Source of the DNA: Escherichia coli
GTDB taxonomy: Bacteria > Pseudomonadota > Gammaproteobacteria > Enterobacterales > Enterobacteriaceae
DNA length: 62,264 bases
Reading direction: 5' to 3' (one strand)
Assembly: GCF_003334305.1 (NCBI RefSeq)
Contig: NZ_QOWS01000027.1
Below are positions 1,240 to 7,463 of this stretch, piece by piece. Under the pieces are notes generated by a model. It saw only the letters and a list, made by a program, of their open reading frames with translations, was not told the origin of the DNA and ran no database searches. The position numbers and the translations under genes are program-made. How positions within the stretch are numbered: position 1 is the first letter of the stretch; each line of letters opens with the position of its first letter.

Positions 1240-2604
1240 TCAGTGTTCTTTTATATATGCGGCTCTGTGACGTTCAAGTTCAATTGCACCACGATGTGAT
1301 AACCAGCAAAAAATGATGCAACAAATAATACCGCAGCCAAGAAGATAAAATCCGCCATGCCAGCCAATATGATCGACCATAATACCAAACAGGCTGGTGC
1401 CCAGAGATGCACCGAAGATATAGCTCATAAAACCACGTAAACCTACCGCGGAGCCAACAGCAAAGCTGGGCACGATCTCCATAGTCTGAACAGAAGCCAG
1501 AAATTGTGGAACGTAAATCAGACAACCAACAATGGCAGCAAAAATTGTCACCATAAACAGTGATTCACTTTTCCAGTAGCCAATCAGGCAAATGAAAATC
1601 AGCGCCATACAAATCATCGCCAATGGCATACGACGCCCTTTAAACAGTTTGTCTGACAACCAACCGGCAAGTAGCGTGGAAGGGATTGCGGCCCATTCAA
1701 AAAATAAAAACGCGACGCTCATTTGTTCTTTAGAAAAATGTTTCACCGTCAGCAGATAAATAGGCAACCAGCTAATCATCCCGAAGCGTACCATGTATAC
1801 AAATACGTCAACCAGTGAGACATACCAGGCATTTTTATTGCGTAATACATAAGTGCAGAAAATCTGAAAGGCACTCATGTTTTCTGGTGCTTTTACCGTC
1901 TGTCGGGTATTCAGGACGACTTTTTCTTCCGGCATCATCTCTTCCAGAGAGGGTAGACCTTCCTGACGTGGGGAACCTTTACCGAGAATCAGCACAATTA
2001 CCGCAAAAACGATGGCCACGCAGGCCGGAACGATATAGCTCGCACTTTGCCAGTGCTCGCTGCCGAGTAGGGCAAAAGCGGCACCAACAATGGGTGCAAC
2101 AATACCACCACCGACGTTATGAGAGATATTCCAGAAAGCACCAACCCGACCACGCTCCCGGCGAGGGAACCAGTTAGCAATAGTGATGAAAGAAGGACCA
2201 ACGCCCATTCCCTGGAAAAGACCATTCAGAATAACCAATACCGCAAAAATCCAGAATGCGGTGCTGAATCCCAGGCCAACGTTAACGATGGCACATAACA
2301 CCAGCCCACACGCCATAAAGACTTTCGGACTGGCTTTATCGGCAAGGCTACTCATCACTCCTTTGCTGATACCATAGGCGATAAGCATACAGCTACTCAG
2401 TACGCCAATTTGTGTGGCGCTGAGATCTAATTGCTCTTTAAGATAAGGCGTCGATAAGGTGAAATTATTACGCACGATATAGTATGCAAGATACCCCAGA
2501 AATACACTAAGTAACGCCTGCATACGATAGCGACGATATGTCACCTGAATTTTCTCCGCCGGAACACTATCCGCCGCTTGCCCCGTTTTAAATATTGATA
2601 ACAT
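1240..2604 (-). CDS. pgtP: MFS organophosphate:phosphate antiporter, PgtP-like (phosphoglycerate transporter family)
   Basis: 454-aa multi-TM protein with the UhpT/GlpT/PgtP-type N-terminus; ATG start at 2604; divergent from a binding-protein/sensor-kinase/regulator operon, as in Salmonella pgtP-pgtCBA. Confidence 0.65.
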   Translation of the reverse strand: MLSIFKTGQAADSVPAEKIQVTYRRYRMQALLSVFLGYLAYYIVRNNFTLSTPYLKEQLDLSATQIGVLSSCMLIAYGISKGVMSSLADKASPKVFMACGLVLCAIVNVGLGFSTAFWIFAVLVILNGLFQGMGVGPSFITIANWFPRRERGRVGAFWNISHNVGGGIVAPIVGAAFALLGSEHWQSASYIVPACVAIVFAVIVLILGKGSPRQEGLPSLEEMMPEEKVVLNTRQTVKAPENMSAFQIFCTYVLRNKNAWYVSLVDVFVYMVRFGMISWLPIYLLTVKHFSKEQMSVAFLFFEWAAIPSTLLAGWLSDKLFKGRRMPLAMICMALIFICLIGYWKSESLFMVTIFAAIVGCLIYVPQFLASVQTMEIVPSFAVGSAVGLRGFMSYIFGASLGTSLFGIMVDHIGWHGGFYLLGCGIICCIIFCWLSHRGAIELERHRAAYIKEH

Positions 2605-2912
2605 GTCTTCACCTGTATTTTATATTGATATGAACACCTGGAGTATTCTGACAATGAGAGTTATATAATTGAGATGAAACATCAAACTGAAAAAATGTGT
2701 CACAATTGACACAAATTAATAAAATCAAAGCATGTTTTTGACCCATTTTATTGATGCATAGACAGGGTAGATTTATGCTTTATCTGTTTTATTGTTAGCA
2801 TGTGCGGATATTAACAAATCTCATGCTGATTATCGGGTAATCACTGATTAATATATTAACGCTCTCTTTGAGCAGATGTGTTATCAGACGAAGTGTCTGA
2901 AACGGGTAATTT

Positions 2913-6226: not shown

Positions 6227-7463
6227 TGAATATTCGATTCTGCTGATTGATGATGATGCTGACGTGCTGGACGCCTACACACAGTTACTTGAACAGTCGG
6301 GCTATCGTGTTTTTGCCTGTAACAATCCTTTTGAGGCACAGGCGTGGATACAACCAGACTGGCCAGGCATTGTGCTAAGTGATGTGTGTATGCCTGGCTG
6401 CTCTGGTATCGATTTGATGATGTTATTCCACCAGGATGATCAACAGCTCCCCATTCTGCTTATCACCGGGCACGGCGATGTGCCAATGGCAGTTGATGCG
6501 GTGAAAAAAGGCGCGTGGGATTTTTTGCAAAAACCGGTCGATCCCGGCAAATTGCTTTCTCTGGTTGAAGAGGCACTACGCCAGCGTCAATCAATCATTG
6601 CGCGTCGTCAGTATTGCCAACAGACATTGCAGGTGGAGTTGATAGGGAGAAGTGAATGGATAAATCAGTATCGGCGACGTTTACAGCAGTTGTCTGAGAC
6701 AGATATTGCCGTCTGGCTCTACGGTGCCCCTGGCACAGGACGGATGACCGGTGCACGTTATCTGCACCAATTTGGACGTAATGCACAAGGCGAATTTGTC
6801 TACCGCGAGCTGACACCAGACAATGCACCACAGCTTAATGATTTCATTGCGCTGGCTCAGGGGGGAACATTAGTGCTCAGCCATCCTGAACACCTGACGC
6901 GTGAACAGCAGTACCATCTGGTTCAGTTACAAAGCCAGGAACACAGACCTTTTCGCCTGATTGGTATTGGAGACACCTCGCTGGTCGAGCTGGCCGCCAG
7001 CAACCATATCATCGCGGAGCTCTATTACTGCTTTGCAATGACACAAATCGCTTGCCTGCCATTAACTCAACGCCCCGACGATATTGAACCACTGTTTCGC
7101 CACTACCTTTGTAAGGCATGTCAACGGCTTAACCATCCTGTTCCGGAAGTGGGAAAAGAGATGCTCAAAGAGATGATGCGCCGCATGTGGCCAAATAATG
7201 TGCGAGAGCTGGCCAATGCAGCAGAACTGTTTACTGTAGGAATATTACCGCTGGCAGAAACAGCAAACCCGTTGATGCACGTCGGAACCCCGGCACCGCT
7301 TGACAGGCGAGTGGAGGACGCTGAGCGACAGATAATCACAGAGGCGCTTAATATCCATCAGGGGCGTATCAATGAGGTTGCTGAATATTTACAAATCCCG
7401 CGGAAAAAACTCTATCTCAGAATGAAAAAATACGGTCTTAGCAAGGAGCATTATAAAAATTAA
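6207..7463 (+). CDS. pgtA: NtrC-family response regulator, PgtA-like, with a degenerate AAA+ domain
   Basis: N-terminal receiver (LLIDDD...D), central AAA+-like region with divergent Walker A (GAPGTGRMTGA) and no GAFTGA, C-terminal HTH. Confidence 0.65.
   Translation: MWKMLSSEYSILLIDDDADVLDAYTQLLEQSGYRVFACNNPFEAQAWIQPDWPGIVLSDVCMPGCSGIDLMMLFHQDDQQLPILLITGHGDVPMAVDAVKKGAWDFLQKPVDPGKLLSLVEEALRQRQSIIARRQYCQQTLQVELIGRSEWINQYRRRLQQLSETDIAVWLYGAPGTGRMTGARYLHQFGRNAQGEFVYRELTPDNAPQLNDFIALAQGGTLVLSHPEHLTREQQYHLVQLQSQEHRPFRLIGIGDTSLVELAASNHIIAELYYCFAMTQIACLPLTQRPDDIEPLFRHYLCKACQRLNHPVPEVGKEMLKEMMRRMWPNNVRELANAAELFTVGILPLAETANPLMHVGTPAPLDRRVEDAERQIITEALNIHQGRINEVAEYLQIPRKKLYLRMKKYGLSKEHYKN

Follow-up and report, generated by a model that had tools for sequence, protein, structure and literature searches.

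The Pgt system of Salmonella, which external phosphoglycerate induces, exchanges 2-PG, 3-PG, and PEP for inorganic phosphate (Pi), as known from the classical literature and from a 2024 preprint that describes its mechanism (10.1101/2024.02.14.580360). In E. coli, a module that combines pix fimbriae with pgtABCP has already been published for PAI V of UPEC 536, GI12 of ECC-1470, strain A0 34/86, PAI I of IMT5155, GI-pheV of S79EC, and ST95 strains. The Salmonella system supports growth in macrophages, and in that genus pgtE adjoins the pgt genes.

Here we examined a stretch of 62,264 nucleotides from an E. coli contig, hereafter the window, and we are highly confident that it carries the Pgt system, intact and on a genomic island. 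Such a locus is already known. The pgt genes are familiar from non-K-12 E. coli, and their placement in a pheV-tRNA island has been published for a number of strains, both pathogenic and commensal, making the assignment correct but ordinary.

Gene content of the pgt locus

The ORF list agrees exactly with the limits that an earlier note had proposed for four intact genes, with pgtP divergent from pgtC, pgtB, and pgtA. The longest ORFs run from 1240 to 2604 on the minus strand (454 aa) and, on the plus strand, from 2913 to 4220 (435 aa), 4217 to 6226 (669 aa), and 6207 to 7463 (418 aa). All four products are full length compared with their orthologues, and since they also match specific curated families, the ORFs are not a chance arrangement. 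RefSeq labels identical DNA as pgtP, pgtC, pgtB, and pgtA. Two antisense ORFs (1815-2177, plus strand; 5833-6339, minus strand) lie inside these well-supported genes and were treated as spurious.

The transporter gene pgtP (1240..2604, minus strand; named pgtP by PGAP) encodes a 454-aa MFS organophosphate:phosphate antiporter, the phosphoglycerate transporter. PgtP exceeds the 750-bit cut-off of its NCBIfam equivalog model, NF047787, with 885.8 bits, and the alignment covers 1-448 of the 451 model positions, in line with the antiporter that the earlier note had read from the sequence. The GlpT substrate-site residues R45, K80, H165, and R269 are all kept in the alignment with PgtP.

The sensor kinase and the response regulator of the earlier note were also recovered by curated models. 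Gene pgtB (4217..6226, plus strand) encodes a 669-aa membrane sensor histidine kinase that matches the PgtB equivalog NF047794 at 1074.5 bits (cut-off 1000), with Pfam HAMP, HisKA, and HATPase_c domains at residues 362-412, 451-513, and 558-663. The H-box, LAHEINQPL, is present with its His, and hydrophobic segments at approximately 15-41 and 335-363 flank a periplasmic domain of about 295 aa. Gene pgtA (6216..7463, plus strand) encodes a 415-aa NtrC/NtrX-like response regulator with a receiver domain, a degenerate AAA+ domain, and a Fis-type HTH, and is the putative activator of pgtP; it matches the PgtA equivalog NF047793 at 728 bits (cut-off 650). The overlap of 20 bp that had been given for pgtB and pgtA holds only when pgtA is read from its first ATG at 6207. 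From the start conserved across genera, at 6216, the overlap is 11 bp. This later start is the one chosen by PGAP, has an equivalent codon in orthologues from other genera, and fits the NCBIfam PgtA model, which begins at ORF residue 4.

The periplasmic protein is PgtC, a solute-binding-protein-like product that matches Pfam SBP_bac_6 (5.9e-29) and also SBP_bac_11, and is the predicted sensing partner of PgtB. Three start codons were considered for pgtC: the TTG at 2913 that opens the longest ORF, the ATG at 2949-2951, and the PGAP start at 3003. The ATG is invariant across an intergenic alignment of 11 genera, and translation from it gives a signal-like hydrophobic N-terminal segment with a canonical signal peptide, MTWITNRFFSWCEIGIKTMILLLLLMDTGAVRA|Q. 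The TTG is an unlikely start, and we place pgtC at 2949..4220 on the plus strand, encoding 423 aa. It lies directly upstream of pgtB and is coupled to it by the 4-bp overlap noted earlier, an ATGA at 4217-4220. PgtC has no equivalog in NCBIfam, or none that fires, and gives only weak matches to PhnS-type solute-binding proteins in that collection; homologues carry the name PgtC in E. coli, Klebsiella, Citrobacter, and Salmonella.

Downstream of pgtP, a hypothetical ORF of 121 aa (832..1197, minus strand) was considered as a fifth pgt gene and rejected. It has no family in NCBIfam or Pfam, no homologue adjoins pgtP across more than 60 other genomes, and it is cut by the module boundary, with identity to ECC-1470 beginning at 1033 and to a plasmid copy at 1142. 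The conserved pgt module does not include it.

The control region and the mode of PgtA activation

The divergent genes are separated by an AT-rich control region of 344 bp (2605..2948), in which the 11-genus alignment revealed conserved blocks at about 2605-2650, 2693-2716, 2736-2745, 2801-2820, and 2902-2923. The first of these is the pgtP leader with its Shine-Dalgarno sequence, AGGTGA. The second holds a perfect dyad, TGTGTCA-caat-TGACACA (2696..2713), 92-109 nt upstream of the pgtP ATG. When 60 pgtP-pgtC intergenic regions taken from different species were compared, its core, GTCA-N4-TGAC, was present in 51; the distance to the pgtP ATG was 90-118 nt in most of these and 153-189 nt in four, and the extended form TG[T/A]GTCA-N4-TGAC[T/A]CA is found in 41 of the 60. 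Based on this conservation and position, the dyad is a candidate operator for PgtA. No sigma-70-like promoter with at least 9 of 12 matches was found on the pgtP strand of the control region, which is expected because the promoter would be activator-dependent. At gathering thresholds, Rfam returned no known RNA elements for positions 1-9000.

PgtA is routinely placed among sigma-54 interactors in PROSITE-based lists, and its Pfam domains follow the order Response_reg, Sigma54_activ_2, AAA_lid_14, HTH_8. The receiver retains the acidic pocket (D12-14) and D56, and residues 140-284 are 100% identical to a solved structure deposited as "Transport activator" (PDB 3N70). The GAFTGA sigma-54 contact motif is absent from this PgtA and from all 63 orthologues, and a shortened segment takes the position of the GAFTGA loop. 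None of the 63 orthologues has a canonical Walker A motif (GxxGxGK), and this PgtA reads GAPGTGR, lacking the Walker-A lysine. The Pfam Sigma54_activat model is matched at its positions 1-55 only, out of 168. At the DNA level, a scan with the consensus TGGCAC-N5-TTGCW found no -24/-12 promoter with three or fewer mismatches in 2192-3325; across the whole window, the sigma-54 consensus gave 313 matches compared with 314 expected by chance. Taking together the missing contact motif and lysine in PgtA and its orthologues and the missing -24/-12 promoter, activation is probably sigma-54-independent. On the reading toward which we lean, the PgtA family as a whole would be made up of "pseudo-enhancer-binding proteins" from which the GAFTGA loop and the Walker-A lysine have been lost, and PgtA would switch on pgtP at a sigma-70-type promoter via the TGTGTCA-N4-TGACACA dyad. 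This differs from the PROSITE-based listing and from the 2024 preprint, which places PgtA Gly173 in a sigma-54-interaction domain (10.1101/2024.02.14.580360). Our searches for PgtA together with GAFTGA, RpoN, or NtrC found nothing addressing sigma-54 dependence, although this reading may already be stated in older literature.

Alternative readings of the locus

Two rival readings start from the family relationships of PgtP and PgtC. GlpT and UhpT are organophosphate:Pi antiporters of one family with PgtP, whose nearest solved structure is GlpT (1PW4, E 1.4e-91) and which gives significant matches to the GlpT, UhpT, and UhpC models. On that ground the locus could be taken for a hexose-phosphate system of the Uhp type (UhpT with UhpABC) or for a glycerol-3-phosphate transporter, GlpT. 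These matches are all far under the curated cut-offs (GlpT 370/632, UhpT 271/497, UhpC 238/564), whereas the PgtP model is exceeded (886/750), so that the best hits do not fall on UhpT or UhpABC. The regulators also differ from those of Uhp: the kinase is of the PgtB type and not UhpB, PgtA is NtrC-like where UhpA is of the NarL type, and PgtC is SBP-like where UhpC is MFS-like. The curated model scores rule out a Uhp or GlpT identity for practical purposes. A reading of PgtC as an ABC importer's binding protein instead of a sensor partner would fit its SBP fold families, its weak PhnS-type matches, and the generic name "ABC transporter substrate-binding protein" that homologues often carry in database entries. 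However, no gene for an ABC permease or ATPase adjoins pgtC here or in related loci, pgtC is always translationally coupled to pgtB in a position kept in more than 60 genomes, and Salmonella genetics assign PgtC a regulatory role (10.1101/2024.02.14.580360). We consider the chance that PgtC serves an importer to be very small. No sequence evidence against the Pgt reading was found.

A separate question is whether the Pgt genes, correctly identified, are functionally silent here, as a decaying passenger of a mosaic island comparable to the locus in S. Typhi. The genes lie between IS remnants on a heavily rearranged island, and among other E. coli copies some are truncated or carry IS insertions. 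In S. Typhi, the single substitution of Gly173 by Asp inactivates PgtA and abolishes induction, a loss invisible at the level of ORFs, and the authors place this residue within a sigma-54-interaction domain (10.1101/2024.02.14.580360). In this locus, all four ORFs are full length, the key residues including PgtA Gly173 are intact, and every control-region block conserved across genera is retained. PgtP and PgtB are furthermore identical at the protein level in unrelated strains, with the same WP accessions in CFS3313 and ECC-1470. A silent locus is thus improbable, and we retain the reading of a complete Pgt system.

Island setting, distribution, and divergence

The locus lies in a genomic island inserted at pheV. 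The fimbriae and defense genes that the earlier note had placed on this island are a Pix-type fimbrial operon and Druantia druA-E, together with a P4-type integrase. On one side of the pgt module is a deoxyribose-type sugar operon; on the other are an IS3 element, Druantia, the integrase, and pheV. At the junction between pgt and the fimbrial operon is a partial IS21 transposase gene by NCBIfam, an istA remnant (7808..8676, plus strand) that is frameshifted and incomplete according to PGAP. The absence of the locus from K-12, also proposed earlier, was confirmed: in MG1655, yghD follows pheV after 148 bp, with no island and no orthologue at this site. The system is accessory in E. coli: of 5,426 complete genomes, sensitive blastn recovered pgtB from only 445 (about 8%), all matches having at least 95% identity. 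Carriers are a minority enriched in ExPEC, APEC, AIEC, and mastitis lineages, and some large IncF plasmids also carry the genes.

The gene organization had been described as best known from Salmonella. The comparison with Salmonella stands, with 91, 84, 83, and 81% identity to PgtP, PgtC, PgtB, and PgtA of S. diarizonae, respectively, but the organization is not special to that genus and is common to Citrobacter, Klebsiella, Edwardsiella, Yersinia, Morganella, Providencia, and others. The divergent order of pgtP and pgtC-pgtB-pgtA was present in the same orientation in 61 loci retrieved from other Enterobacterales. Relative to the sampled genera, pN is 0.06-0.12 and pS is 0.67-0.78, with synonymous sites saturated. 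The low pN with saturated pS indicates strong purifying selection over a long time, with none of the sampled genera as a recent donor, and a recent transfer from Salmonella, Klebsiella, or Citrobacter was rejected on the saturation of synonymous sites. With 9-19% protein divergence from the characterized proteins, the inducer or substrate preference could differ from that of Salmonella.

Proposed function

The analysis itself shows the identities and intactness of the genes, their synteny, the island location at pheV, the accessory distribution in E. coli, and the strong purifying selection. The model below takes its substrate range, inducer, direction of phosphorelay, operator, and sigma-54 independence from the Salmonella work or from our own deductions. 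The SBP-like PgtC would sense external 3-phosphoglycerate, and also 2-PG and PEP, in the periplasm, acting jointly with PgtB, and this membrane histidine kinase would then phosphorylate PgtA on Asp56. Phospho-PgtA would bind the DNA between the divergent genes, with the dyad upstream of pgtP as the probable site, and switch on pgtP transcription. The resulting GlpT/UhpT-family antiporter would bring phosphoglycerates or PEP in and move inorganic phosphate out, supplying both glycolytic carbon and phosphorus from a source that is out of reach for K-12. In this way, pgt may let carrier E. coli import host glycolytic intermediates. The literature searched contained no experiments on this E. coli allele and no tests of the pgt contribution to E. 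coli fitness in host niches.

Comparison with known systems

The externally induced phosphoglycerate transport locus of Salmonella enterica, pgtP-pgtCBA (STM2396-2399), matches this E. coli locus in its four genes, in their divergent order and overlapping frames, and in the control-region blocks, the dyad upstream of pgtP among them. Compared with the Salmonella chromosomal site, the E. coli copy resides on a tRNA-integrated island, pgtE is not adjacent, and the IS21 remnant follows pgtA. Given the saturated synonymous sites, it is not a recent import from Salmonella. Against the Uhp system of K-12, the regulators are non-homologous, and the substrate also differs, with the UhpT and UhpC model scores under their cut-offs.

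The best full-length solved relative of PgtA is NtrX (5m7n), which also lacks GAFTGA. Compared with NtrX and other NtrC-family regulators without the sigma-54 contact motif, PgtA additionally lacks the Walker-A lysine and has the shortened GAFTGA-loop segment, and its partner kinase and regulon differ.

The module itself is the same pix-pgtABCP module that is found in pheV, pheU, and leuX islands of E. coli. The finding confirms an E. coli source with the published module in its pheV island and is otherwise of little weight. In ECC-1470, GI12 is 98.7% identical to positions 1033-17327 of the window, and the match takes in the IS21 remnant that separates pgtA from the Pix-type fimbrial operon. 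There the module sits beside fec on an island at tRNA-Leu, and only the surrounding cargo differs from the arrangement described here.

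Identity and gene limits of the pgt locus

The window carries a phosphoglycerate transport and regulation locus, as the earlier note had proposed, a reading supported by the equivalog scores of three of its proteins and by RefSeq naming. PgtP (NCBIfam score 885.8, cut-off 750), PgtB (1074.5, cut-off 1000) and PgtA (728, cut-off 650) all score above their equivalog cut-offs, whereas the models of the paralogous transporters GlpT (370, cut-off 632), UhpT (271, cut-off 497) and UhpC (238, cut-off 564) fall below theirs. UhpT/UhpABC, the competing assignment named beforehand, is thus not the better match. 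PgtC matches no NCBIfam equivalog model; it resembles solute-binding proteins (Pfam SBP_bac_6 and SBP_bac_11), and its name is borne by homologues at 80-91% identity in E. coli, Klebsiella, Citrobacter and Salmonella. By megablast against complete E. coli genomes, 100% identical DNA carries the RefSeq labels pgtP, pgtC, pgtB and pgtA.

The substrate-site residues of GlpT are conserved in the PgtP alignment. PgtB has a periplasmic domain of ~295 aa between two hydrophobic segments, along with HAMP, HisKA and HATPase_c domains and the H-box LAHEINQPL. PgtA keeps the receiver acidic pocket, Asp56 and Gly173; change of the latter to Asp silences the Pgt system of S. Typhi (10.1101/2024.02.14.580360). 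By homology with Salmonella, external 3-PG would be sensed by PgtC and PgtB, PgtB would phosphorylate PgtA, and PgtA would activate pgtP, whose product would swap Pi for phosphoglycerate or PEP.

The four gene limits proposed earlier agree exactly with the ORF list: pgtP (1240-2604, minus strand, 454 aa) and, on the plus strand, pgtC (longest ORF 2913-4220, 435 aa), pgtB (4217-6226, 669 aa) and pgtA (longest ORF 6207-7463, 418 aa). The 4-bp overlap of pgtC with pgtB is confirmed, but the 20-bp pgtB/pgtA overlap holds for the longest ORF and not for the likely pgtA start. The NCBIfam PgtA model aligns from residue 4 of the ORF, PGAP places the start at 6216, and the same codon is the start in orthologues; since these agree, the overlap is likely 11 bp. 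A pgtC start at TTG 2913 is improbable. The ATG at 2949-2951 is invariant in an 11-genus alignment and gives PgtC a canonical signal peptide; in the reference strain CFS3313, PGAP places the start at 3003.

PgtA and the control region

Its motifs set PgtA apart from conventional enhancer-binding proteins: GAFTGA is absent, the P-loop reads GAPGTGR, and SHPEH stands at the Walker-B position. Neither a GAFTGA loop nor GxxGxGK, with the Walker-A lysine, occurs in any of 63 PgtA orthologues. Pfam Sigma54_activat covers PgtA over its first 55 model positions only, and Sigma54_activ_2 fits. Among solved structures NtrX is the best match over the full length, and PDB 3N70 is the central domain of PgtA itself (100% identity, residues 140-284). 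No -24/-12 promoter match was found in the control region (2605-3002 scanned). Because GAFTGA, the Walker-A lysine and such a promoter are all missing, we infer that PgtA activates pgtP independently of sigma-54. Usual listings place PgtA among sigma-54 interactors.

No other non-coding element of the control region is as well conserved as a perfect dyad upstream of pgtP, TGTGTCAcaatTGACACA (TGTGTCA-N4-TGACACA, 2696-2713). Its core, GTCA-N4-TGAC, recurs in 51 of 60 intergenic regions from different species at a near-constant distance to the pgtP start, and the dyad is a good candidate for the PgtA operator.

Conservation across genera

With each species represented by a single genome, a comparative scan yielded 67 loci, and in 61 of them tblastn placed PgtP divergent from PgtC-PgtB-PgtA, exactly the order in the window. 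Proteins of Salmonella enterica subsp. diarizonae are 91 (PgtP), 84 (PgtC), 83 (PgtB) and 81% (PgtA) identical to those of the window, and those of Klebsiella and Citrobacter are equally close. Among the sampled genera, non-synonymous divergence is 0.06-0.12 and synonymous sites are saturated (0.67-0.78), which together indicate strong purifying selection; the saturation also means that none of these genera is a recent donor.

A second, far more divergent pgt-like locus (PgtP 75%, PgtC 56%, PgtB 48%, PgtA ~50% identity) is present in Escherichia whittamii, Escherichia sp. E1V33 and a genome labelled E. coli SCPM-O-B-8794 (loci L054, L055 and L056), with an unusually long pgtP-pgtC intergenic region of ~900 bp. 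Pasteurellaceae (Aggregatibacter, Gallibacterium; loci L062-L068) carry pgtC-pgtB-pgtA-like genes at 33-44% identity. No PgtP homologue was found in their flanks at E<=1e-20, and the sensing module may control another transporter there.

Distribution within E. coli

The pgt locus is accessory in E. coli. Sensitive blastn found pgtB in only 445 of 5,426 complete genomes, always at 95% identity or above; the full locus matched 465 genomes, 431 with coverage of at least 80%. The K-12/K1 hybrid EV36 is among those with a match; presumably its kps region came from a K1 strain and, kps lying near pheV, would account for this.

Ten E. coli plasmids also carry the locus, at ~98% identity; several are IncF plasmids of 260-295 kb that came from human stool. 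Plasmid copies, such as that on NZ_CP011417.1 (219529-225752, locus L072), have IS600, IS66 and IS1 at their flanks. The module's mobility is not confined to tRNA islands.

The pheV island

The sole tRNA gene in the window, a tRNA-Phe (34436-34511, minus strand), adjoins a P4-type tyrosine integrase ORF (32976-34238, minus strand), and beyond it yqgA and speC mark the island/core junction; we therefore identify it as pheV. In CFS3313 the island is bounded by pheV on one side and by yghD with the gsp type II secretion genes on the other. The site is empty in K-12, since yghD follows pheV by 148 bp in MG1655. The locus is thus absent from K-12, as claimed earlier, and no orthologue occupies the site. 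The proposed linkage to fimbriae and defense genes also stands: a Pix operon adjoins pgt, and Druantia lies in the same island.

The Druantia anti-phage system (18513-29870, minus strand) is complete (druE-druD-druC-druB-druA by PGAP in the reference strain) and lies between the IS3 copies and the integrase end. Just within that end, the reference strain has IS fragments and a phosphoethanolamine transferase gene with a frameshift. Position 1 of the window falls within an aldose-1-epimerase gene (1-744 region), the last of four genes in the reference locus L001 (15916-20291), after a DeoR regulator, a ribokinase-like kinase and a FucP-like permease; we take this cluster to resemble the operon with which pathogenic E. 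coli use deoxyribose (deoK). Between it and pgt lies a transposase remnant (435-744). Two insertion sequences present in CFS3313 are missing from the window, an IS3 copy at ~30537 and an IS621 copy at ~50860 of the window; the rest is 99.3-100% identical, so the window derives from a close relative rather than from CFS3313.

Comparison with published pix-pgt modules

Pgt is a textbook system, earlier work has recorded it in pheV islands of E. coli, and the pgt finding is already known. In strains 536 and S79EC, pix and pgtABCP lie downstream of intP4 in the pheV island (PMC11537424). GI12 of ECC-1470 has pixGFJDCHAB (pixD a pseudogene) adjoining pgtABCP, as do 536 and A0 34/86 (10.1101/096479), and in IMT5155 pgtABCP is found on an island at the pheU side (PMC4232414). 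AIEC studies also mention pgtP-pgtCBA.

The chaperone-usher operon beside pgt (9106-17088 region) encodes a PapB-like regulator, two pilins, an usher (10666-13236), a chaperone, a fibrillin, a minor pilin and a 330-aa putative adhesin, and is followed by an EAL-domain gene (16306-17088). The pgt genes and the IS21 remnant recur in ECC-1470, where PgtP and PgtB bear identical accessions. Because the operon of the window and the pix cluster published for ECC-1470 are collinear, and window 1033-17327 is 98.7% identical to that strain, we identify the operon as Pix and pix-pgt as the published module. The pix chaperone is frameshifted in ECC-1470, whereas its ORF is intact in the window, where Druantia shares the pheV island with the module.
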